Source: a virus | Taxonomy: Duplodnaviria > Heunggongvirae > Uroviricota > Caudoviricetes | DNA length: 52,139 nucleotides | Virus record (IMG/VR): IMGVR_UViG_2541047752_000007 | Span: 1-52,139 of that record | Reading direction: 5' to 3' (one strand) | Part shown: piece after piece, positions 2,552-50,071 of the stretch | How the letters are laid out: each line of letters begins with the position of its first letter | How positions within the stretch are numbered: the first letter of the stretch is position 1 | Position numbers and translations under genes: made by a program | Notes under the pieces: generated by a model | The model's database searches: none | What the model saw: the letters and a program-made list of their open reading frames with translations, nothing else | What the model was told of the DNA's origin: nothing

Positions 2552-3973
2552 TTAAAAAGATGCGTTGCTCTGGCTGTTTCGTGGGGAGAATCGACTTGCC
2601 GCCGGACGTTGTTGCATTGACTGAATGCAAGCGGACGCCGCGCGGGCCTGGTTGCATGGGATGATGTTGCCGTTATCGTCAAACCGCTGGTAAACAGTCC
2701 CCGTTTTCCCGTGACGGTTTTTTGAAACGATGATCTCCATATATTCGCGGGCAACCGATTGTTCGTTGTAGTAGCCGTCGCGGTAGACCATGATGATCCG
2801 GTCTGCGTCCTGTTCAAGATTACCGGAATCACGCAGATCAGAATTGTTCGGGCGCTTGTTCGGTCGTTCCTCAACGCGGCGGGATAATTGCGCCAGTGCC
2901 GCCACTGGCACGCGCAACTCTTTCGCCATCATTTTCAATGACCACGACAATTGCCCTACGGCGAGATCATGACGTTCGGCCTTAGCCAGTTTCATTAACC
3001 CGATATAGTCAATCATCACCATCCCCAGGTTAGGATGGTCCTGTTTCATCCGTTCGACGGTGGCGCGTATTTCCTCGACCGTTAACTGCGATGCGTCAAC
3101 AATCCACACATCGAGATCGGCAAGGGCACTCATTCCCTGGGTGACGTGCGCCCAACCTTCGTCATCCAGTTTTACCGGATTACGTAGGCAGTCGGTTGAT
3201 AAATTACCAGCGCCAGCTATAGCGCGTTCAGTCATCTGATCGAGTGACATTTCAAGCGTGAAGAACAAAACGCCAACCCGCTGATCTTTACTGCCAGGGT
3301 AAGGGCGCTCAGCAGCAGCGCGGGCAATCGCCAGCGCCAACGCAGATTTACCAGACCCAGGGCGTCCGGCGAGAAGTACCAAATCAGTAGCGTTAATACC
3401 GCCTAACATTTCGTCGAGCGGTTCTATCCCTGTTTTGATGTTGTCAGAATTGACACCGCATTCCATGCGCTTGCTTAAAACCTCTGTGTATTCCTGTACC
3501 GCATCGCGCAACAGAACAGGAATGATCTTGTCTTTAGTTGCCTTTAATTTTGAATACCGGGAATCAAAATCTTTCATCGTCTCTTTGACGACTTCAAGCG
3601 TCCCCGTTTCCAGCTTGTAGCGCATGTCGTCGATTAGTTCCAACATCTGCCTACGCTGGTGTTCTTCACGTAGTAGCTGTGCGTACCCTTTCAGGTTGGC
3701 AGCAGAAGGGCACGATCGCGCCGTTTGCATCAGCGGAACAAAGTTTTCATTGCCAATCTCATCGCCAACCAATAACGCGTCGATAAGATTCCTGTTTCTG
3801 GCTTGCGCCCGGATAATTTCAAACGCCCGCTTATACAGCGGAATAGTGAACACTTCAGGATCTAGTGTAGCGAGAACATCTTGCGCGTTAGGAGTGAGGC
3901 CGCCTAATAGCAGCCCGCCGATAACTGACGCTTCACGTTCCTGCCGTAGTGAGTTTATTTGCTCAGTTACCAT
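2552..3973 (-). CDS. DnaB-like replicative DNA helicase
   Basis: 473 aa; Walker A GRPGSGKS, IIVSKNRHGKTG and other DnaB C-terminal motifs; GGAGGT RBS; about 30 aa C-terminal extension. Confidence 0.9.
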   Translation of the reverse strand: MVTEQINSLRQEREASVIGGLLLGGLTPNAQDVLATLDPEVFTIPLYKRAFEIIRAQARNRNLIDALLVGDEIGNENFVPLMQTARSCPSAANLKGYAQLLREEHQRRQMLELIDDMRYKLETGTLEVVKETMKDFDSRYSKLKATKDKIIPVLLRDAVQEYTEVLSKRMECGVNSDNIKTGIEPLDEMLGGINATDLVLLAGRPGSGKSALALAIARAAAERPYPGSKDQRVGVLFFTLEMSLDQMTERAIAGAGNLSTDCLRNPVKLDDEGWAHVTQGMSALADLDVWIVDASQLTVEEIRATVERMKQDHPNLGMVMIDYIGLMKLAKAERHDLAVGQLSWSLKMMAKELRVPVAALAQLSRRVEERPNKRPNNSDLRDSGNLEQDADRIIMVYRDGYYNEQSVAREYMEIIVSKNRHGKTGTVYQRFDDNGNIIPCNQARAASACIQSMQQRPAASRFSPRNSQSNASF

Positions 3974-3991: not shown

Positions 3992-5110
3992 TTACAAAAT
4001 GGAATATTCAGGGTAATAAACAAAGCGCCCAATTTCCCCATGATCCGGGCTGTAAATAATCACCGCTGCCAGACGCCGCGACCGCCAGCCGCCATTAGTT
4101 GAATATGCGTCTTTGCCAGCTAATGTGCCGTGGTGCTCAACTATTCCAAGTGATGTTTCAACAACTGATTGATGGTGCAGATGTCCAGTGTGAGCGTAAA
4201 CAGCCACAGACCTCCCGAAATCCTCCCGCCAGTCAGATACGCAAGCCGACAATAAATTTTCCGGCTTTTTGATAGTGTGCCCGTGGTGGTAAGCAAGGAA
4301 TGTTTTGCCGTACTGTGTGTGGTGGACGATAGCAGGGGACACATCAACAGTTACGCGCGGTTCATCTTCGTAAAAAGCCGCCAGCGCCGCACGTAGCCAA
4401 ATCATGCCAGACTGATCGTGATTGCCTGATAGTACCTGGATTTCAATATCCTTATGATTTAACAACATCTTTCCTACCGCCAGACGTACCGCTCGGATCG
4501 CTACATAGACAAGTTTTGCATAGCGTGAATCGCAATCCAGTACGTGATTGCTTGATGGCGTAACTGGCAACAGCCCGTCAGTGTGAAGAACATCCCCACC
4601 GAGAAGCAAAACAGCTTTTTCAGACATCGGCGCAGCGCCCACCGCGTAGTCAAAGAATTCATTCAACACGCGTTCAGCGATCCCAGTGTCGTAGCTCTCG
4701 CCGCATTCAGCTTTATGAGCAAGCGCCCCGATATGCAGATCAAATACCGGATAAAGGGCCAGGCTTTTTTGAAAATCAATTTCAGGCACTGGCACGGCCT
4801 CCGCGCGTGGTATTTCTTCCGTGAATGCGTCGCGGGCAGCTTCCATTAGCCTTTCCATTTCATCACGGTCACGGGCAGTTTTAATCCAGCGCATGACCGT
4901 ATTACCAGCCTTATCGACAAGAACAGATTCACCAGTAATGCCAAAACCAGGCGCGCGACGCGTTGATATTAAACCGCGTTTCGCCAGTTTTGCGCCTAGC
5001 CGCTCGACGTTGCGTTTTGACATGCCATATTTTTCAGCGATCTGCTTGTACGTTAAACCGTTGTTATATTCAGCGATCAATTGCTCATCGCTGATTTTTC
5101 TTTGCGACAT
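3992..5110 (-). CDS. HTH domain fused to calcineurin-like metallophosphoesterase
   Basis: 372 aa; N-terminal LTYKQIAEKYGMSKRNVERL HTH; phosphoesterase motifs FDLHIG, GGDVLHTDG, SGNHD, YHHGH, HTGHLHH. Confidence 0.6.
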   Translation of the reverse strand: MSQRKISDEQLIAEYNNGLTYKQIAEKYGMSKRNVERLGAKLAKRGLISTRRAPGFGITGESVLVDKAGNTVMRWIKTARDRDEMERLMEAARDAFTEEIPRAEAVPVPEIDFQKSLALYPVFDLHIGALAHKAECGESYDTGIAERVLNEFFDYAVGAAPMSEKAVLLLGGDVLHTDGLLPVTPSSNHVLDCDSRYAKLVYVAIRAVRLAVGKMLLNHKDIEIQVLSGNHDQSGMIWLRAALAAFYEDEPRVTVDVSPAIVHHTQYGKTFLAYHHGHTIKKPENLLSACVSDWREDFGRSVAVYAHTGHLHHQSVVETSLGIVEHHGTLAGKDAYSTNGGWRSRRLAAVIIYSPDHGEIGRFVYYPEYSIL

Positions 5111-7859: not shown

Positions 7860-8507
7860 ATGAAAACAAAATGGTATGACTTAGCAAAGCAGCTCATGCG
7901 GGCGCAGGGCATGAGCCAGGATTCGCTCGCGGATCGTATGGGGATAACTAAAGGCGGCCTGTCACACTGGCTGAACGGTCGCCGAGAGCCAAATCTTGAA
8001 GATATTGCGCGGATTATGCGCGAGCTTGGTCGTCGGCAGTTTACTGTTACACATGATGGCATGGTCATTGATGATTCTGTTTCTAATACACTTCAGGCCG
8101 TGCCGCCGCGTGATTTAGGTAGTTACCCGGTTATTGACTGGAAGGACACAGTAAACAATATGGATGACGCAAGGCGTTCAGCATTACGACACGTTACGAC
8201 TAGCGTTATTTGTTCAGATGACAGTTACTGGCTGGTTGCCAAAGGTGAATCAATGAACGCGCCGCAGGGGTTGAGCATCCCGGCGGGGACGATGATACTT
8301 GTGGACCCGCACGCGCCAGCTATTGACGGCAAACTGGTTATAGCCCAGCTTGAGGAAGGGCAGATACCGACGTTTAAACAGTTGATTATTGATGGAGGTC
8401 AAAGGCTTTTACGTTCGCTCAATCCGCTGTATCCGCCAATCCCTATGAATCCAGAATCAAAAATTATAGGCGTGGTGGTTGATGCGAAGATCGTAAACCT
8501 GCCATAA
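7860..8507 (+). CDS. CI-like phage repressor (HTH_XRE plus S24 LexA-like peptidase)
   Basis: 215 aa; N-terminal HTH MSQDSLADRMGITKGGLSHWLNGRR; C-terminal GESM (Ser) and VVDAK (Lys) autocleavage dyad. Confidence 0.85.
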   Translation: MKTKWYDLAKQLMRAQGMSQDSLADRMGITKGGLSHWLNGRREPNLEDIARIMRELGRRQFTVTHDGMVIDDSVSNTLQAVPPRDLGSYPVIDWKDTVNNMDDARRSALRHVTTSVICSDDSYWLVAKGESMNAPQGLSIPAGTMILVDPHAPAIDGKLVIAQLEEGQIPTFKQLIIDGGQRLLRSLNPLYPPIPMNPESKIIGVVVDAKIVNLP

Positions 8508-35863: not shown

Positions 35864-36541
35864 ATGATCCATGTTCGTACAGGGCAATTTGCGGCTGTGG
35901 TGAACGGTAAGCGCTATGAGTTTAATCCTTGCTTTGCTGCGATGGCTAAAATCGGCAACGATAGTGAGCTTGTCGAATATTTCGCACTTATCCACGGCAG
36001 CAAATACCCTTCACGATTACCTACAGATCCAGACCTCCGCAATCGCATTATGGCACGGTGTTATGGTGAGATAGTGCAAACGTCAATGCGCATCCTGAAA
36101 TGTTGCTCAGACGACGAAACAGGCCCGTTATTGGGCAAATGTAGGTTTACTCCTTCTGGTAAATTGAGACTAAAACCCGGACTGATGCCTACAAGTGATG
36201 TTATCACGCTGGCGCAACATTGCATGTACCACGGTTTAATTGGTGACGGGCCGGAAGAAGACACGGGCGCGATCCAGGAAGGCGAGTACAAGCCGACATT
36301 TGACGTACTTGAGTTTGTTTATTCTGCCGTTGCTCACCTGGGATTGTCAGAATCAGAAGCATGGAATATGACAATGACCGGATACAGGGCCGCAGTGCGC
36401 GCTAAAACGCCGCCAGACGAAAGAAATGAAAGAAGTAGACCAAATGTTCACATAAATAAACGTGCTTATGACGAGCAAATGGAGGCCGCTAAAAAGGCAC
36501 TGGAAAGAATGAAAAATAGCAAGCAAGAAAAAGCCCGGTAG
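35864..36541 (+). CDS. putative tail assembly chaperone
   Basis: 225 aa from ATG 35864; between major tail and tape measure; no slippery heptamer found. Confidence 0.4.
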   Translation: MIHVRTGQFAAVVNGKRYEFNPCFAAMAKIGNDSELVEYFALIHGSKYPSRLPTDPDLRNRIMARCYGEIVQTSMRILKCCSDDETGPLLGKCRFTPSGKLRLKPGLMPTSDVITLAQHCMYHGLIGDGPEEDTGAIQEGEYKPTFDVLEFVYSAVAHLGLSESEAWNMTMTGYRAAVRAKTPPDERNERSRPNVHINKRAYDEQMEAAKKALERMKNSKQEKAR

Positions 36542-36556
36542 ATCCGGGCGTTCATC

Positions 36557-36976
36557 TTATTTGATTCTAATAATATCAATAAACCCGTTACCCAAATCTA
36601 CAATTGCGTAATTTTTTGCGCCCGCGCCGCCTTCATTAAAAATTCTTTCCGCGAAAGCAACTTTATTTGCCTTGCACTCGTTTGCTATCCTGTTTTTTAT
36701 TTCGCTATTATTTTCAAAGACTACGCCTACAGCAGCCTCGTTTACAAGGCCATAATTAAACCAGCGAGCATAAACTGGTTTACCTTCAAATTTTTTATCA
36801 ATTGCCTTAAAAAGAATTGCTGGCGCGGCTGGTTCTTTTTTGATCATGTCGTGATATGCTGCTACATGGTTTGCCACTTCTTCACAGTTAATGCTTATGG
36901 CCTCGTTAGCGTTCGCGTTAAATGCGAGTGCGGCAATCACAGTAAGTGCCATTTTTGCTAACCGTTTCATAATCAA
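36557..36976 (-). CDS. secreted (signal-peptide) protein, reverse-strand moron
   Basis: 139 aa; N-terminal MKRLAKMALTVIAALAFNANA signal peptide; convergent with chaperone gene. Confidence 0.5.
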   Translation of the reverse strand: MIMKRLAKMALTVIAALAFNANANEAISINCEEVANHVAAYHDMIKKEPAAPAILFKAIDKKFEGKPVYARWFNYGLVNEAAVGVVFENNSEIKNRIANECKANKVAFAERIFNEGGAGAKNYAIVDLGNGFIDIIRIK

Positions 36977-37200
36977 CTCCTACCGCTTATTATGATTTGC
37001 TAAATTCTTCCTTTAACTTATTTATACACGCATATTGTTTATTTTTTAAGTGCTTTTAACATTTCTTCGATGAAATCCGCATAGCGTTCATGTTCGTTGG
37101 GGCGGTAGTTTGCGTTTTTCATTTTCTTGTCCCCTTTTGCTTCCTCCGGTTAATCCGGCCTTTTAAATCCATTTGCTCTATCCCTTCCCTTTAGCTTCTT

Positions 37201-37240
37201 TATACAAAATGTATTCGTTGAAATGAAGCCATTTTGTATA
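37201..37240. repeat. perfect 11-bp inverted repeat upstream of tape measure gene
   Basis: tatacaaaatg - 18 bp spacer - cattttgtata; 40 bp upstream of TMP start. Confidence 0.8.
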
Positions 37241-37279
37241 AAATAGAGGCATACATCACATTCTGCATGAGGTTAAATC

Positions 37280-39619
37280 ATGGCTACCAGTGTAGGTACA
37301 ATTTATTACGAAGTTGATGCGAAAACTGGTCAACTTCTCGTTGCACAACGACAGGCAGACCAGGCCTTTGATCGTATAGAGCGCGGCGCAAAACAGGCTG
37401 ACCGCCAGGTAAACACCCTGAAAACATCCATCAAGGCACTGACCAGGGTTATCCATTTGCTAATTGCTGCCGAGGCTGTGCGCCAATTTATGGATATGGC
37501 GGAGCAAGCAAAAATGCTTCGCGTAAAAATCAAAATGCTTACGGGCGATGCAGAGTCCGCCGGACGGGTTTTTGACGGCCTGAAAGCAATATCCAGGGAG
37601 ACGGGTCAGAGCCTGAAGGATACTGGCGAACTATGGCAAGGCCTGGCTATCTCACTGAAGAACACGTCAGCTACCGAAGGTCAATTACTTAACCTTGTCG
37701 GCACTATTCAGAAAATGGGGGCGTTAGGCGGTGCGTCAGCAGAGCAAATGTCAAACTCTATGCGCCAGTTCCGCCAGTCTATAGACGGCGGCGTGCTGCG
37801 TGCTGAAGAATTTAACAGCCTACTTGAAAACACCCCGACCATCGTACAAACAATGGCCCGCCATATGGGATTATCAATGGGCCAGTTCCGCGCCGAAATG
37901 CTGGACGGTAAGATCACGGCAGAAAGGATGGTTAACGCAATCCAGGCGGCTACGCAGGAAACAAACGAGAAGTTTGCGCAGTTGCCGCGCACATCCGGCA
38001 CGGCTATCAATGAACTAAAAGTCGAGGTAATGGGTCTGGTGGAACAACTGGACGATCTTTTCGGTGTATCAGATGGCGTAGTCTCAGCTATCGACTTGAT
38101 CACAAAAGGAGTTAATGGGCTAGGTGAGGGCGCTAAATTCGCTAAAACCTGCTTTGATACGCTCAAAACGGCTGGTAGCGAATTCATCGACATGTTTGAT
38201 GATGTGGCTGTGAAGGCTGGCGAGGTGGCAGAGAAGATCATCGCAATGGTGACGCCAATCAAGGCGCTAATGGATGGCTATAAATGGATGAAAGAGATTG
38301 TCGATGAACGCAAGGAAGAACTAAACAGCAACAACGAGAAAAAATTTGGCCCTACCATCGGTAAATTCATGACGTTTAAAAACGACATTGAAAAGGCGAC
38401 CGCCGCTTATGACGAGCTTATGCAGAAACAGGCAGAAGCCAACGACGGAGCTATTACCGGATTCGATAAGCCAGTTGATAAGCCGAAAAAACAGAAAAAA
38501 GAGAAGAAATCGGAAGCTGATCGGCTTGGAGACAAGGGCATAAGCGTTTCTGATCAGTACAACAAAGACGCCGCCGCCATGCGCAAAGCGTTAGAGAACG
38601 GCAAGGCCATTGATGCTGCGTTCGCCCAGGGTAAAATCACACTCCTTGAGTACCGCGCCGCGCAAAAAGGGATCGGCAAGGAGCTGAAAGAAGAATTAGC
38701 GCAGATCCCGGTAGATGAATTGCGTGATAAATGGTCGCAAATAGTTAGCCCAATGGACCAGCTAAAAGGCGAAGTTGACCCTATCCAGCAGGCGCAAAAT
38801 GAATGGGCCGTCCGTAAGCAAATGCTTATCGACCTGGGCGCTACAGAAGCACAACAGAAACAGGAATTATTAGCCTATGAGCAGCAGATCCGCGATCTGA
38901 AGTGGGAACAGTGGCAGGCGCAAAGCCAGACAAACGGCCTGATCGGTGATTGCGTTAATGGCCTTAAAGGTGGCATGAGCAATGCGCTTGTTGGCCTGCT
39001 TAACGGTACTCAATCATTGAGCGATGTTTTTGCTAACTTAGGCAGCAATATACTTGGGAATATCGGTAACAGACTTTCGGACATAGCTGCCAACTGGATA
39101 GCAGATCAAATCATGATGGAGACACAAAGCAAAGCCACGCAGGCCAGCACAACGGCAAGCGCGGTTGCCGCTCAGGGAAGCATTGCTGCGGCGGCGGCCC
39201 CGGCGGCGGCAGCGACAGCGGCATCAACTGGCGGTAGCTGGGCGGCGGCTGGCTCGGCGGCGCTTACTGCGATCATGTCGCTGGCAACATCCATTTTCGG
39301 CGGCGGGCGCTTTAATGGTGGTAGCGTAATTGGTGGCAATATGTACCGCGTCGGGGAACATAACAGGCCGGAGCTATTCCAGACGTCTAACGGCAACCAA
39401 TACATGATCCCCGGCGAGAATGGCAGGGTTATCCCGGGCCGTGATATTGGCGGCGGCGGCGGTATCAGTATGCCTGTTTACATCGACATTCAAACCACAA
39501 ACGGATTTAGTGACGAAGACAGCCGCAGACTTGAACAGACAATGGAACGTGTAGCCATGAAAATGATAACAAGGGAATCGCAAAGACCTGGCGGGATGTT
39601 GCAACCGCGCCGCAAATAA
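37280..39619 (+). CDS. tail tape measure protein (lambda H-like)
   Basis: 779 aa; coiled-coil, Ala/Gly-rich C-terminal region; position. Confidence 0.85.
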   Translation: MATSVGTIYYEVDAKTGQLLVAQRQADQAFDRIERGAKQADRQVNTLKTSIKALTRVIHLLIAAEAVRQFMDMAEQAKMLRVKIKMLTGDAESAGRVFDGLKAISRETGQSLKDTGELWQGLAISLKNTSATEGQLLNLVGTIQKMGALGGASAEQMSNSMRQFRQSIDGGVLRAEEFNSLLENTPTIVQTMARHMGLSMGQFRAEMLDGKITAERMVNAIQAATQETNEKFAQLPRTSGTAINELKVEVMGLVEQLDDLFGVSDGVVSAIDLITKGVNGLGEGAKFAKTCFDTLKTAGSEFIDMFDDVAVKAGEVAEKIIAMVTPIKALMDGYKWMKEIVDERKEELNSNNEKKFGPTIGKFMTFKNDIEKATAAYDELMQKQAEANDGAITGFDKPVDKPKKQKKEKKSEADRLGDKGISVSDQYNKDAAAMRKALENGKAIDAAFAQGKITLLEYRAAQKGIGKELKEELAQIPVDELRDKWSQIVSPMDQLKGEVDPIQQAQNEWAVRKQMLIDLGATEAQQKQELLAYEQQIRDLKWEQWQAQSQTNGLIGDCVNGLKGGMSNALVGLLNGTQSLSDVFANLGSNILGNIGNRLSDIAANWIADQIMMETQSKATQASTTASAVAAQGSIAAAAAPAAAATAASTGGSWAAAGSAALTAIMSLATSIFGGGRFNGGSVIGGNMYRVGEHNRPELFQTSNGNQYMIPGENGRVIPGRDIGGGGGISMPVYIDIQTTNGFSDEDSRRLEQTMERVAMKMITRESQRPGGMLQPRRK

Positions 39620-39624
39620 CACTA

Positions 39625-39650
39625 AGGCCGCTATAAGCGGCCTTTATTTT
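39625..39650. terminator. bidirectional rho-independent terminator after tape measure gene
   Basis: aggccgc-tataa-gcggcct followed by ttatttt; between convergent genes. Confidence 0.55.
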
Positions 39651-39756
39651 ACATGGTAAGGATATAAATTAAACAGCACAGGAATGCGGGCGCGGCGAAG
39701 TCGCAAACGCTAGCCATATTCCATGCTTTTGGTAAAAAACCACCATACCACGGCAT
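39649..39756 (-). CDS. small hydrophobic peptide (35 aa)
   Basis: MPWYGGFLPKAWNMASVCDFAAPAFLCCLIYILTM; GGAGGG about 12 nt upstream; C-terminal part of ORF-track 39649-39840. Confidence 0.3.
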   Translation of the reverse strand: MPWYGGFLPKAWNMASVCDFAAPAFLCCLIYILTM

Positions 39757-39799
39757 TCTTTCTCGTTTCCCTCCGCAAAATTCCGCTATGTAACGATAT

Positions 39800-39934
39800 T
39801 CAGCCTGTGTGTTCCCGCGCAAAAAAGAATGTACATCCAATCAGGCCGCCAGTGAGATAATCGCCAGTAAGCAGGCCGATAACAACCTGTATAGTCGCCG
39901 CAGCCAGTGCGTGACCAATAACGGTTAAATCCAT
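39800..39934 (-). CDS. small glycine-zipper membrane peptide (44 aa)
   Basis: Hand-translated MDLTVIGHALAAATIQVVIGLLTGDYLTGGLIGCTFFFAREHTG; GGGAGGA RBS 7 nt upstream. Confidence 0.4.
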   Translation of the reverse strand: MDLTVIGHALAAATIQVVIGLLTGDYLTGGLIGCTFFFAREHTG

Positions 39935-39936
39935 CG

Positions 39937-40122
39937 TTAATCCTCCCGATCGTTCTCAAATGTGCCATCTACAAATTTTTGCAGCCCGGCGATAAGTTGT
40001 GTTGCCTGCGATTTTTCAATCACTATGGTTTCAGTCCCCATAAGTTCGGTTATCCACAGCCGACCATCCTCATCAAGATCTAACCTAACTCCGTAACATA
40101 ACTCTGTTTCGTCAATAATCAT
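39937..40122 (-). CDS. hypothetical acidic protein
   Basis: 61 aa; stop overlaps start of the 44-aa peptide gene. Confidence 0.4.
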   Translation of the reverse strand: MIIDETELCYGVRLDLDEDGRLWITELMGTETIVIEKSQATQLIAGLQKFVDGTFENDRED

Positions 40123-40231
40123 TTTTCCTCCTATAATCTTCCGTTACGTGCGACGTAACCCCTGCCGAACATCACTAACCAGATGTTCCAGATCTCCCGC
40201 TAGGTATATTTCTCCTCCTCCATATTCCACC

Positions 40232-40486
40232 TCACTTATGAGCGCCTTTCACTCCGCAATGACGGTTGTATTCCAGGTGATCGATAATTAACCAAATATT
40301 CAAATCTTCACTGAACAGCCGCCAGTCAGGATTGATATCGAATTTAAAGCCATAACCATCACGTAATTTTTTGGGGCGGGCTTCTTTTTTCAGGAAGGCG
40401 TTAAGCAACTTCTTGCCTTTCTTGATTACCCGTTCCTGTGCATTCTTTTGTGCTTTCAGGTTTTTTTCGATAGTTACCAGTTTCAT
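40232..40486 (-). CDS. hypothetical basic protein (84 aa)
   Basis: Lys-rich N-terminal half; possible toxin-like fold but no confident family. Confidence 0.4.
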   Translation of the reverse strand: MKLVTIEKNLKAQKNAQERVIKKGKKLLNAFLKKEARPKKLRDGYGFKFDINPDWRLFSEDLNIWLIIDHLEYNRHCGVKGAHK

Positions 40487-40503
40487 AACTCACCCCATCG
40501 TCC

Positions 40504-40659
40504 TTAGTTAAGCGCCCTCAGGAAGAAATCCCGGTATTCATCATCCTTCGCGTTCATCATGAATTGACCGTATTTGAATGCGTCGTCGAAACCCTTAACA
40601 ATTGCTACTTCCACTTGCTCGAATGCGTTGTTTAGCATCACTACTACATAGCTACTCAT
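40504..40659 (-). CDS. hypothetical small protein (51 aa)
   Basis: Hand-translated MSSYVVVMLNNAFEQVEVAIVKGFDDAFKYGQFMMNAKDDEYRDFFLRALN; 17 nt upstream of the 84-aa gene. Confidence 0.35.
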   Translation of the reverse strand: MSSYVVVMLNNAFEQVEVAIVKGFDDAFKYGQFMMNAKDDEYRDFFLRALN

Positions 40660-40772
40660 TTTTGGGCCTCACTTGCTGGTACCGCTTTTCTTCTTGCTTC
40701 CTGTATACAGCTTGTTGCTTCATGTGTGAATCCATATTGTAAACTAGCTATAATTCTTGTGATGAATATCTC

Positions 40773-40796
40773 ATTTTTCGCGTAGAAGCGCGTAAA
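40773..40796 (+). promoter_or_regulatory. conserved 24-bp motif upstream of tail gene M (copy 2)
   Basis: atttttcgcgtagaagcgcgtaaa, followed by tatacaaaatgtaa motif and RBS. Confidence 0.5.
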
Positions 40797-40830
40797 GATA
40801 TATACAAAATGTAACTTACAGGAGGGGGGT

Positions 40831-41184
40831 ATGCCGGAAGTGTTCAGATGGACACCACAGAGAAGCTACAGCGTAAACAGTGAGCCTAACGTGTCCGTTA
40901 TCAAGCTGGGCGATGGCTATGAACAGCGCCAGACAAAAGGGATTAATCCACTACTTGACAGCTATACGCTGGTCTTTAAAGGTACGAGCGCCGGATGCGG
41001 TGACGCCGGAAACGTGGCGCTCCAGGTTGACGCATTTTTAAGAGCACGTTGCGCGGTCGAGGCGTTTTACTGGACGCCATCTACAGACGGAGTGAAAAGG
41101 CTTTTTGTATGCCGAAAGTGGAGCATGGCGAAAGACGGCCCGGTATGCACTCTGAATGCAACGTTTGAACAAGTTATCAATTAA
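40831..41184 (+). CDS. M: minor tail protein M
   Basis: 117 aa; FRW, GDGYEQRQ, FEQVIN align with remembered lambda gpM. Confidence 0.8.
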   Translation: MPEVFRWTPQRSYSVNSEPNVSVIKLGDGYEQRQTKGINPLLDSYTLVFKGTSAGCGDAGNVALQVDAFLRARCAVEAFYWTPSTDGVKRLFVCRKWSMAKDGPVCTLNATFEQVIN

Positions 41185-41197
41185 TGGAGAAGTCAAT

Positions 41198-41383
41198 ATG
41201 TATGCTATTTGTGTAGTTGACCGCACGGGCGCTTTTACATTATTTGACGACTATGAAATCAAAGATCTTACCGTAAAGGCTGACAATGGCGAGATCTGGT
41301 ATCTTCATGACGTTGGTGACGGGTATGTCGGATGCAGATCGAGAGAGGGTAGGGAAGTTTTATTCTTGCTTGATGGCGTATAA
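41198..41383 (+). CDS. hypothetical small protein
   Basis: 61 aa from MYAICVVDR; GGAGA RBS. Confidence 0.4.
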   Translation: MYAICVVDRTGAFTLFDDYEIKDLTVKADNGEIWYLHDVGDGYVGCRSREGREVLFLLDGV

Positions 41384-41412
41384 ACACTACCCCGCGCGAA
41401 GCGGGGTTATTA

Positions 41413-41529
41413 TTATTCCATTTCCATTAACGCTATATTTTCCGCTATCGTTTTCCAGTCCAGATCTACAGCATGAACACCAAATACTATCAATCCCATT
41501 GCGATTAGTGCTAAAACTTCGATTTTCAT
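41413..41529 (-). CDS. small single-TM peptide (38 aa)
   Basis: MKIEVLALIAMGLIVFGVHAVDLDWKTIAENIALMEME; GAGG RBS. Confidence 0.35.
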   Translation of the reverse strand: MKIEVLALIAMGLIVFGVHAVDLDWKTIAENIALMEME

Positions 41530-41541
41530 AATCAACCTCAC

Positions 41542-41622
41542 TTAATTAAGAAAGGCATAAACGATGACAATCGCGCCAGCCACTACCAAAACGTTTTCGA
41601 TTACTTCGTCCACTCTATTCAT
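41542..41622 (-). CDS. small single-TM peptide (26 aa)
   Basis: MNRVDEVIENVLVVAGAIVIVYAFLN; start shares a base with upstream stop. Confidence 0.3.
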   Translation of the reverse strand: MNRVDEVIENVLVVAGAIVIVYAFLN

Positions 41623-41825
41623 TAAGGTAACTCCACTTCATTAAATGTAACAAGCACCCCTTGATTTTCTTTATTTATAATTATGAAGGCATTAATTGAA
41701 GGCAGACATCTTTCCACGCGGTAAACGTCACCAATATCTAAACTGTAATATTCTGTTAATTCTCTATTGTTCCCTTTAGCAAAACCCGTAAACCTAACCA
41801 TTCCTTGACCGTCGTACTTTAACAT
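41622..41825 (-). CDS. hypothetical protein
   Basis: 67 aa ORF in moron operon. Confidence 0.4.
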   Translation of the reverse strand: MLKYDGQGMVRFTGFAKGNNRELTEYYSLDIGDVYRVERCLPSINAFIIINKENQGVLVTFNEVELP

Positions 41826-41833
41826 ATACAGTC

Positions 41834-42082
41834 CTATAGGCTATCACGCAGATAATTAACGCCCTTATCAGTGACGAATGAATGATTAACCTGGTTTTCA
41901 TCCGTCATGATGATGAATAACTTTTCCTGTAGGTATTTCGCTTTCGGGTACAGCGTTAAGCAGACCTGGTACAAAATCCCGCGCTCAATCAGCAAATCAA
42001 TAAATTCGTGCTCATGATAACCGATAAGGCGGGCGGCCTGCTTCAACGTGTACACATAATCACTGTGATTGCGCCGCGCCAT
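41834..42082 (-). CDS. putative HTH DNA-binding protein
   Basis: 82 aa; YTLKQAARLIGYHEHEFIDLLIERGIL helix-turn-helix-like. Confidence 0.4.
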   Translation of the reverse strand: MARRNHSDYVYTLKQAARLIGYHEHEFIDLLIERGILYQVCLTLYPKAKYLQEKLFIIMTDENQVNHSFVTDKGVNYLRDSL

Positions 42083-42090
42083 ATTGCCAC

Positions 42091-42438
42091 CTATTTGTCG
42101 AACGCTCCAAGATTATCTATACAGAAATCCTTTGCCGCTTTTTCGTATTCGCGTTTTGCTTGCGGATCGTCAGCCGGGAAACCTTTTGCGTGTATTTCAC
42201 CAGGGCAAGACTGATCCATAGAGTCTGCAAAATTAACATTGAAGTTAACATTAATATCTTTCGGGTTCATATCTTCCACCTCATCAACTATCTGTACCGG
42301 ATTAGCAGCATATTTCACTGGATGGCCTAAACTACATTCAAGAATCCTGCCTTCTTCCAGGGCTACTTCTTCGCTATCAAATAATCCGAAACACTCCTTT
42401 CTGCCACTTAACCACACATCAAGACTGTATTTTTTCAT
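42091..42438 (-). CDS. hypothetical protein (about 115 aa from MKKYSL)
   Basis: ORF-track 42091-42540; internal start chosen to avoid long overlap. Confidence 0.4.
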   Translation of the reverse strand: MKKYSLDVWLSGRKECFGLFDSEEVALEEGRILECSLGHPVKYAANPVQIVDEVEDMNPKDINVNFNVNFADSMDQSCPGEIHAKGFPADDPQAKREYEKAAKDFCIDNLGAFDK

Positions 42439-42606
42439 TTTTGTTAGCCTCATATTTGACAGGTTCGATCTGGTATCCCAAAAGGCGGTCATCCTCAACA
42501 AGTAAAAGCGCGTCAACCAATGCTTCCCCCTCGTCGTCATACAGGGCGATAACCTTTTCCCTACCGTCTGTCATGAATGCCGTCAACTTCCATAGCTTTT
42601 CAGTCA
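42419..42606 (-). CDS. hypothetical small protein (62 aa)
   Basis: MTEKLWKLTAFMTDGREKVIALYDDEGEALVDALLLVEDDRLLGYQIEPVKYEANKNEKIQS; GGAGGTG RBS; first gene of moron operon. Confidence 0.45.
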
Positions 42607-42736
42607 TAACGCACCTCCGCGCCATTTTGTTAACTCCTCCTTCGTTTGAGTAAAATATACATATTGTAAAAACCACGATCAATCCATTTTGGTATGATTT
42701 GGCGTGACGCAGATCACAAAATGACAAGGTGAGAAA

Positions 42737-43441
42737 ATGCGCAATATTCCGAGAGAGATGATTATTGATTCCGTCGATGCCGGAGTTGGCGCGGTCATTG
42801 ACTTATTTGAACTGGACCTTACTCCCCTGGGAGGCGAGGTTATCCGCTTCCATTCCGGCGCGAACGGCTATTACGGCCAGGTTATCTGGAAGGGAGTAGC
42901 TTACAACAGCTACCCGATCGAGGCGACGGGCTTCGAAATGAAAAATGAGGGTGTTTATTCGCGGCCTCAAATGATTGTAGCCAATATCGGCGGACTCATT
43001 ACGGGGATGAACAACGATTTTAACGACCTTAGAGGAATGAAGGTTACGCGCCGCCAGGTGGAGGTGAAATATCTTGACGCCGTTAACTTCCCTAACGGTA
43101 ATCCAGACGCAGATCCATCTATTGAGGCTGTATCTTTTTACGTCGTTGAAGCAATGAGCGAAGAAACAGCGGATCAGGTGCAGTATGAACTGTCAACGCC
43201 AATTGATGCAGATAAAGCTGTCATCCCTGGGCGCACCATCCTTGCTGACGTTTGCCAGTGGCAATACAGAGGCGACGGGTGTATGTACGCTGGCGGACCA
43301 GTAGCAAACGATAAAGACGAGCCGACAAGCGATCCTAAAGCCGACAGATGTAGCCACCGTCTGAGCGGTTGTCGTTTACGTTTCCCGCGTCCAAATCCGT
43401 TACCAATTTCCTGTTTCCCCGGTTCAAGTAAGGTGGGCTAA
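42737..43441 (+). CDS. L: minor tail protein L
   Basis: 234 aa; LDLTPLGGE, ARFLDAVNFxNGN-like YLDAVNFPNGN, AVIPGRTILADVCQWQYRGDGC align with remembered lambda gpL. Confidence 0.85.
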   Translation: MRNIPREMIIDSVDAGVGAVIDLFELDLTPLGGEVIRFHSGANGYYGQVIWKGVAYNSYPIEATGFEMKNEGVYSRPQMIVANIGGLITGMNNDFNDLRGMKVTRRQVEVKYLDAVNFPNGNPDADPSIEAVSFYVVEAMSEETADQVQYELSTPIDADKAVIPGRTILADVCQWQYRGDGCMYAGGPVANDKDEPTSDPKADRCSHRLSGCRLRFPRPNPLPISCFPGSSKVG

Positions 43442-49912: not shown

Positions 49913-50071
49913 TGTCTTATCCTCCATTGTTCCGTCGGTTGTAGTATCCATAAACATCGTTTTCTCAACATTGATATAAATCAATAAATACATTTTGTAT
50001 AAACCAGAAATGTAACGCAGATCACAAAATGGTAAAATTACCAGGTTAATTAACATAATGGAGTCATTGCG

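Follow-up and report, generated by a model that had tools for sequence, protein, structure and literature searches.

The 52,139-nucleotide (nt) stretch of viral DNA analysed here (IMG/VR record IMGVR_UViG_2541047752_000007, hereafter the window) is, as a whole, an mEp021-type temperate coliphage or prophage of the mEpimmI group. Between its tape measure gene and M, two genes that are neighbours in phage lambda, lies a unit of small genes encoded on the minus strand, opposite to the tail operon. This cassette (39649-40659) is one of three reverse-strand insertions in the tail gene cluster, the others being found at 36557-36976 and 41413-42727. Its genes are named here g51, g84, g30, g61 and g95, after the length of their products in amino acids (aa). 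The first two form a conserved core, for which we tentatively propose a role as a toxin and its neutraliser. In the sole paper on the mEpimmI phage group, the genes between H and M are discussed neither in the text nor in the supplements (PMC11893012).

Matches to the region, at 80-85% identity, come from just six phage records: mEp021, mEp010, mEp044, mEp554, mEp515, and MagusPhagus. The cassette is also matched in 32 of 5,426 complete Escherichia coli genomes, the best at about 90% identity, and the exact 84-aa protein is widespread among draft assemblies (307 blocks of the collection). Synteny was compared across 20 mEp-type loci, labelled L001 onwards (L004 is GN05505 and L011 is mEp515). 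Other labels used below denote the assembly GCA_029998135.1 (L017), a set of near-identical prophages (L018-L021), E. coli chromosomes (L022-L026), and phage 1H12 (L030).

The reverse-strand cassette and its genes

The genes and other features of the locus are collected in Table 1. The first-pass annotation of this DNA had described five minus-strand open reading frames (ORFs), of 51, 84, 61, 44 and 35 aa, and all five lie where it had placed them. The two shortest, however, are halves of a single frameshifted gene, g95, and the remnant of a further gene, g30, had been missed.

The cassette ends at a hairpin shared with the tape measure gene, which folds with about -15 and -17 kcal/mol on the two strands (z -3.4 and -3.1, respectively). 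Its T-run is good on the plus strand, where the tape measure transcript would end, and weaker on the minus strand, where the cassette transcript would end. A terminator is annotated at the same place in the records of mEp021 and mEp010. It is one bidirectional hairpin, instead of the convergent terminators described in the first pass, that closes the cassette on this side. The GC content of the cassette is 0.43-0.47 (0.43 in the block 40001-40500, with a GC skew of -0.28), and that of the adjacent 3' part of the tape measure gene is 0.52-0.56.

The ancestral order of the cassette, as reconstructed from synteny across the 20 mEp-type loci, is g51-g84-g30-(variable)-g61. Among these loci, g95 is limited to the clade of the window and that of PAR, GN05505 and KKa019; in mEp021, a zinc-ribbon protein and one further gene replace g61; in mEp515 and L016, g84 is followed by an inserted HNH endonuclease gene; and in L015 the cassette is reduced to g51 alone. 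The HNH gene (2743-3249 in the mEp515 locus, 3243-3755 in L016) directly follows g84 and overlaps its end, and the lineage bearing it carries the most divergent g84 allele, with 61-67% identity.

Promoter-like sites, a terminator, atypical composition, and cargo that differs between otherwise syntenic relatives are the marks by which a moron would be recognised, and all of them can be read in the sequence. On these grounds, the cassette is a genuine reverse-strand accessory (moron-like) operon, whose transcription is predicted. This agrees with the first-pass proposal of a reverse-strand moron cassette following the tape measure gene and preceding M, which is borne out by the block of deviating GC content and skew, the conserved promoter-like region and the terminator. 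Homology to tail assembly components, named at the time as a sign against that proposal, was found for none of the cassette proteins in Pfam, PHROG and NCBIfam searches, the last of which returned zero matches of any kind. Similarly, no cassette protein matches a known defence system in PADLOC, and an Rfam scan of positions 36000-43000 gave no credible non-coding RNA.

The last gene of the cassette is broken. The 44-aa ORF (39800-39934, minus strand) aligns to positions 1-43 of phrog_1443 and a 63-aa ORF (39649-39840) to positions 40-94, the 35-aa ORF being the portion of the latter that follows an internal methionine. At the same DNA, E. coli PAR, GN05505, KKa019 and L018-L021 have a single coding sequence of 288 nt (95 aa), from which the window differs by the loss of 2 bp in an (AC)4 run, leaving (AC)3 at 39806-39812. 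When two bases are restored, the gene encodes exactly the L018 protein and differs from the L018 gene by one synonymous change. Intact g95 alleles show a ratio of nonsynonymous to synonymous substitution rates (dN/dS) of 0.14-0.22. The independent assembly L017, identical to the window at 1212 of 1213 cassette positions, lacks the 2 bp as well. As read from these sequences, the 44-aa and 35-aa ORFs are two pieces of one recent pseudogene. Given the split match to phrog_1443, the intact relatives and the 2-bp loss, the 44-aa ORF therefore represents what is left of the N-terminus of a membrane protein and not the separate glycine-zipper peptide of the first-pass annotation, whose GGGAGGA ribosome-binding site can nevertheless be read directly upstream of it. 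A programmed frameshift or phase variation at the (AC) run was considered and rejected, since relatives have one continuous ORF and a run of three to four units is very short; for the same reasons, a plain slippage mutation is the simplest reading.

Relatives of g95 with 51-58% identity occur in phage 1H12 and about 50 other lambda-like phages as unannotated genes with a conserved AREHTQAEYR...MPW(Y/W)GGF loop. In phage 1H12 (L030 2501-2794, the sole such locus read), the homolog is a forward-strand gene that immediately follows the side tail fibre genes. It adjoins the sitABCD cargo, a position that, by analogy, would be typical of superinfection-exclusion genes.

The 109-nt "spacer" between g84 and g61 contains the remnant of g30, which, to judge by its amber codon, is a recent pseudogene in the window. 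The gene is intact in mEp021, mEp010 (annotated as mEp010_102), mEp515, L012, and L016, where it is preceded by a ribosome-binding site of its own and shows numerous synonymous differences, and its positions elsewhere include 3507-3596 in L001, 3456-3545 in L002 and 3401-3490 in L011. The consensus of its product is M-x-x-x-K-(F/Y)-TWRE(I/L)W-x-IW-x-VMF-x-R-x-Y-x-x-RNGRL. Codon 8 (W8) has been hit twice, by a TGG to TAG change in the clade of the window and by a 1-nt deletion in the clade of PAR, GN05505 and KKa019. The spacer is conserved because this gene sits there, and its folding is no better than that of shuffled sequence (z -0.9). The next gene, g61, encodes a very acidic protein (isoelectric point (pI) 4.05, net charge -10.5) under strong purifying selection (dN/dS against relatives 0.12-0.16), and its stop codon lies 2 nt ahead of the g95 start.

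Table 1. Features of the cassette and its surroundings, in window coordinates.
Feature	Position	Strand	Description
g51	40504-40659	-	Intact 51-aa acidic protein, phrog_29810; first gene of the operon
g84	40232-40486	-	Intact 84-aa basic protein; Pfam PF24732, phrog_1525
g30 pseudogene	40131-40223	-	30-aa Trp-rich basic peptide; amber at 40200-40202, codon 8
g61	39937-40122	-	Intact 61-aa protein, phrog_13627; AGGAGG ribosome-binding site
g95 pseudogene	39649-39934	-	phrog_1443; hydrophobic residues ~5-38 and ~75-95
Bidirectional intrinsic-terminator hairpin	39624-39644	both	9-bp GC-rich stem, 3-nt loop
Leftward promoter-like region	40702-40763	-	Conserved, sigma-70-like candidates
Promoter candidate a (putative)	-35 ATCACA 40763-40758; -10 TACAAT 40741-40736	-	Spacing 16
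Promoter candidate b (putative)	-35 TTCACA 40730-40725; -10 TATACA 40707-40702	-	Spacing 17
Motif copy TTTACAATATG	40733-40743		Within the cassette promoter-like region
Imperfect conserved palindrome TTTTCGCG-TAGAAG-CGCGTAAA	40775-40796		Between two divergent promoter-like boxes
Rightward motif copy TATACAAAATG	40801-40811	+	Ends 20 nt before the M start codon at 40831
TATACAAAATG sites	3991, 5132, 7775, 8618, 9297, 12733, 16265, 16333, 22557, 28545, 37201, 37230, 40801, 49991		
Tape measure gene	37280-39619	+	Left flank of the cassette
M	40831-41184	+	Pfam Phage_min_tail, 99 bits; right flank, followed by L, K, I, J

The conserved core of g51 and g84

Contrary to the first-pass statement that no family could be assigned to these two proteins, profile searches place both of them, as given in Table 1. 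The product of g84 matches Pfam PF24732 (ParE_like) with 42 bits, above the gathering cut-off of 24.4 (E 9.2e-11), over positions 2-67 of the 67 of the profile. Nearly all g84 homologs carry a precomputed PF24732 label, and some are named "ParE family toxin-like protein" by the Prokaryotic Genome Annotation Pipeline (PGAP). The protein is strongly basic (pI 9.95, net charge +10), and its dN/dS against relatives is 0.04-0.07, with synonymous divergence saturated in several of the comparisons. In an alignment of ten sequences reaching down to 29% identity, six residues do not vary (K40, L41, G46, R56, H70 and N74) and four are nearly invariant (P38, G44, D54 and Y73). In P0126, a more distant PF24732 member, K40 is substituted. 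This 82-aa protein (3,872 blocks of the collection) is encoded in L022-L026 by a gene at 4001-4249, in a same-strand operon with the order DnaB - 541 aa - DUF2786 - DUF2857 - ParE_like - DUF7446 - Ead/Ea22, an apparent integrative element.

The AlphaFold2 model of g84, based on a 15-sequence alignment, has a mean predicted local distance difference test score (pLDDT) of 89.7, a predicted template modelling score (pTM) of 0.80, and a beta-beta-alpha-beta-beta-beta-alpha topology. In a Foldseek search of the PDB with this model, YoeB, YafQ, HP0894, HigB, GraT and ParE2 come out on top, all of them as weak matches (E at least 0.13, template modelling (TM) score 0.4-0.54). Identities in these fold matches are 17-19% for YafQ, Thermus thermophilus RelE, the Helicobacter pylori toxin 4ls4_A and YoeB and 6-8% for ParE proteins; the two matches that rank first, RelE3 and HigB1, have 10% and 9%. 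Of the predicted viral structures, those of "ParE-like toxin domain" proteins from two jumbo virulent phages, fHe-Yen9-04 and RaK2, match best (TM 0.72-0.85). The model suggests that the predicted fold of g84 is RelE/ParE-superfamily-like. By sequence, no usable link between g84 and solved toxins was obtained, either by phmmer and profile searches of the PDB or by hhalign against E. coli YoeB (2a6q_E). The catalytic residues of YoeB are E46, R65, H83 and Y84, and an arginine on a strand together with a His/Tyr after the last strand is the pattern of the ribonuclease (RNase) branch. R56, H70 and N74 of g84, with the near-invariant Y73, resemble this branch (R65, H83 and Y84 of YoeB), a correspondence of residues that we draw by analogy. 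In the literature, no paper mentioning PF24732 or "ParE family toxin-like" and no experimentally characterised PF24732 member was found, nor were there plasmid-borne relatives of g84.

Upstream of g84, at a distance of 17 nt that had been noted in the first pass and can be read directly from the sequence, lies g51, with its own ribosome-binding site. Its product is acidic (pI 4.46), whereas that of g84 is basic. It is under very strong purifying selection (dN/dS against relatives 0.05-0.07), and residues 4-38 are identical in six aligned loci. As would be expected of a type II toxin-antitoxin (TA) pair, g51 precedes every g84 among the mEp-type loci, even where g84 has only 61-67% identity, and in none of them is g84 seen without g51 or a g51 remnant. 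Conversely, g51 is kept where the rest of the cassette is deleted (L015), and it is intact beside a truncated g84 in PAR, the sole such locus read. Ecol_244 and about a dozen further protein clusters likewise have a truncated g84. Between the window and GN05505 (L004), the g84 DNA is 80% identical, with a synonymous divergence (dS) of about 2 and proteins 85% identical, whereas the adjacent g51 DNA is 97% identical, so that the g84 allele appears to have been replaced by recombination.

The best single explanation, which we hold tentatively and at just short of an even chance, is that this conserved core is a toxin-neutraliser module in the style of type II TA systems. The cassette would then be one leftward accessory operon of an mEp021-type phage, transcribed from its own promoter region (about 40700-40765) and ending at the hairpin next to the tape measure gene. 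Within it, g84 would be a RelE/YoeB/YafQ-like RNase rather than a ParE-type gyrase poison, as indicated by Arg56, His70, Asn74 and the near-invariant Tyr73. The acidic g51, as the first product of the same mRNA, would hold g84 in check, probably via its invariant N-terminal ~30 residues. In the lysogen, the module would serve to stabilise the prophage, or to abort or exclude infection by other phages. The toxicity and RNase chemistry of g84, its binding by g51, the expression in lysogens, and the phenotype are what we infer from the gene structure, selection, family membership, predicted fold, and synteny described above. The first-pass likening of the pair to a TA module finds real support on the side of g84, with its PF24732 membership, RelE/ParE-type predicted fold, and toxin-like PGAP names, whereas the evidence for g51 as an antitoxin is mixed.

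Several observations on g51 weigh against this explanation. The protein has no match to an antitoxin or DNA-binding family in Pfam, NCBIfam, PADLOC or the PDB; its sole match is phrog_29810, of unknown function, and its family is confined to mEp-type phages. AlphaFold models it as one helix, with low confidence (pLDDT 72, pTM 0.36). Moreover, g51 and g84 do not co-vary, as g51 is nearly invariant where g84 identity spans 61-100%, and the variants seen at the g51 C-terminus do not follow the g84 alleles. Distant PF24732 members, found in Sortsnevirus, in Alcyoneusvirus/RaK2-like jumbo phages, in phiKp_21, in metagenomic phage contigs, and in an E. coli integrative element, have no g51 homolog and lie outside two-gene modules. 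Finally, in three independent lineages, a truncated g51 stands upstream of a g84 that is intact and retains its invariant residues: the g51 reading frame is shifted after K29 in L027 and at codon 29/30 in L029 (3 contigs), and it stops at codon 32 in L028 (4 contigs). The simple prediction of a TA system, an undamaged antitoxin wherever the toxin is intact, is therefore not cleanly borne out. All three lesions fall within about 10 nt of each other and residues 1-29 are always retained, so that a true g51-null with an intact g84 has not been seen; the truncations would fit a toxin-neutraliser pair only if residues 1-29 suffice or if the operon is silent in lysogens.

A serious rival, and one that we consider quite possible, is that g84, with its RelE/ParE-type fold, acts during infection as an effector by itself, such as a nuclease directed at host mRNA or the ribosome, or some other modulator, instead of as an addiction toxin, with g51 as an unrelated operon neighbour that does not neutralise it. 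It draws on the missing co-variation, the lack of antitoxin features in g51, and the three lineages with truncated g51 and intact g84, and likewise on L015, where the survival of g51 by itself suggests that it has a separate function. In addition, the relatives of g84 in PF24732 are mostly encoded in virulent phages, in same-strand arrays of small early-type genes without a conserved partner, and one member, in the jumbo phage Muenster, is annotated as a "putative YafQ-like ribonuclease toxin". What counts against a stand-alone effector is the strict adjacency of g51 and g84, with its 17-nt gap, in all the mEp-type loci, even after replacement of the g84 allele. The pairing of an acidic with a basic protein fits a complex, the g51 truncations spare residues 1-29, and an orientation against the late operon, together with an own promoter-like region and terminator, is typical of prophage-expressed genes.

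A bolder version of the toxin-neutraliser reading, which we regard as rather improbable, would take PF24732 as a phage-specific branch of RelE-fold nucleases, acting as stand-alone effectors against the host in virulent and jumbo phages. In mEp021-type temperate phages, one of these would have been domesticated with a new and unrelated mini-inhibitor, g51, the first ~30 residues of which suffice, to form a new TA or abortive-infection family housed within the tail operon.

The pair could also be a toxin and its neutraliser in which g84 poisons DNA gyrase, as ParE does. Even though the Pfam name of the family points to ParE, this is unlikely: RelE, HigB, YafQ and YoeB outrank the ParE proteins in the fold search and with higher identity (9-19% versus 6-8%), and an invariant Arg, His and Asn with a near-invariant Tyr by the last strand are, according to established knowledge, the pattern of the RNase branch. 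It is less probable still that the neutraliser of g84 is the g61 protein or the g30 peptide instead of g51. The net charge of g61 is indeed the most complementary to that of g84, and homologs of g30 and g61 follow g84 in most mEp-type cassettes. However, mEp021 has g84 without g61, g84 is intact in the window and PAR clades even though g30 is a pseudogene in both, and the HNH endonuclease gene splits g84 from g30 and g61 in mEp515 and L016. That the ORFs are chance ORFs or tail assembly components, as only their position within the tail gene cluster would suggest, is hardly credible in view of the low dN/dS, the saturated synonymous divergence, PHROG and Pfam families unrelated to tail proteins, the strand opposite to the tail operon, and the content varying among syntenic phages, down to g51 alone in L015.

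A candidate that was tried and rejected is paralogy of g51 with the leading genes of the cassette between M and L or with other small ORFs of the window. The idea arose from a shared "hydrophobic strand - DD - helix" look, and phmmer --max with 436 ORFs of at least 35 aa gave nothing with E < 4.

The promoter-like region and the other tail-cluster insertions

The 170-nt intergenic region between g51 and M is more conserved than coding DNA, with a mean column identity of 87% across 7 phages. Besides the leftward promoter candidates listed in Table 1, it holds the imperfect palindrome, which, from its position between divergent promoter-like boxes, may be an operator. The rightward TATACAAAATG box ahead of M may serve, as a promoter or leader element, to resume expression of the tail genes beyond the cassette.

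This motif recurs along the genome. Within one mismatch, TATACAAAATG is found at 14 sites in the window versus 1.8 expected, a number reached by none of 100 shuffles. The oriented consensus is (T/A)(T/A)TACAA(A/T)ATG(G/T), and TTTACAATATG copies are found at 40733-40743 and 42660-42670. Most of the sites read (all but 28545) are intergenic and, where a gene has been identified, upstream of a gene on the same strand. The genes behind them include that of a CI-like repressor (7860-8507), the replication operon, the Erf operon, M, and both reverse cassettes. The motif could be a promoter, leader or operator element. At sites 5132 and 9297 a longer common block of ~35 nt reaches the start codon, and two exact inverted TATACAAAATG copies, 18 nt apart at 37201-37240, lie ~40 nt upstream of the start codon of the tape measure gene.

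As for the other two reverse-strand insertions, the one preceding the tape measure gene is a 139-aa ORF with a signal-peptide-like N-terminus (36557-36976), and the one between M and L (41413-42727) encodes an 82-aa protein with a KilAC-type antirepressor domain (PF03374, 31 bits). The promoter region of the latter has the TTTACAATATG box in common with the cassette described here. A 17-nt block, CATTTTGTGATCTGCGT, is common to the L-proximal intergenic region (42600-42740) and to ~50000-50030, and in both it lies upstream of a motif copy.

Significance and comparison with known systems

The cassette belongs to kinds that are already known, a prophage moron and a RelE/ParE-like toxin family recognised in Pfam and PGAP, and its novelty is limited to g51 as a possibly new partner family. 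If g51 and g84 did form a working toxin-neutraliser module, they would represent a new antitoxin family and give the first functional handle on PF24732, which is found in E. coli prophages as well as in virulent and jumbo phages. The cassette also illustrates how reverse-strand accessory operons and their terminators are tolerated inside a tail gene cluster. In annotations, a single frameshifted pseudogene should take the place of the 44-aa and 35-aa "genes", the remnant of the 30-aa gene should be recognised, and the 84-aa gene can be labelled as encoding a ParE_like or RelE-ParE-fold protein.

The closest relatives of g84 are PF24732 proteins such as those of the Klebsiella phages RaK2, phiKp_21 and Muenster, Yersinia phage fHe-Yen9-04 and Escherichia phage Sortsne. 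It scores above the gathering cut-off of the family and shares with them the predicted fold (TM 0.72-0.85) and an R...H..YN core. Contrary to g84, these phage members are mostly found in virulent phages, within same-strand arrays of small genes and without a g51-like neighbour.

Regarding the classical type II TA systems, YefM-YoeB, DinJ-YafQ, RelBE and HigBA have no detectable sequence similarity to the g84/g51 pair. The usual RelE/ParE toxin starts with a hairpin of two helices, whereas the g84 model has one N-terminal helix and an N-terminal beta-hairpin. No DNA-binding or antitoxin domain of a recognised family (RHH, Phd/YefM, HTH, AbrB, ParD, PaaA2) was detected in g51. The PaaR2-PaaA2-ParE2 system of E. 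coli O157:H7 prophages (PDB 5czf/5cw7) is another possible comparison. However, g84 is only 8% identical to ParE2, no PaaR2-like regulator was found in the cassette by Pfam and PHROG searches, and g51 is unlike PaaA2 in all the searches run.

The arrangement of the whole unit finds its closest counterparts in the morons of lambdoid tail regions, such as gene 15 of HK97 and lom and bor of lambda (PMC3594210, "The moron comes of age"). Like these, the cassette would be self-contained, with a promoter-like region and a terminator of its own, set between tail genes and carrying variable cargo. It differs from them in being an operon of four to five genes and one of three reverse-strand insertions in the same tail cluster.

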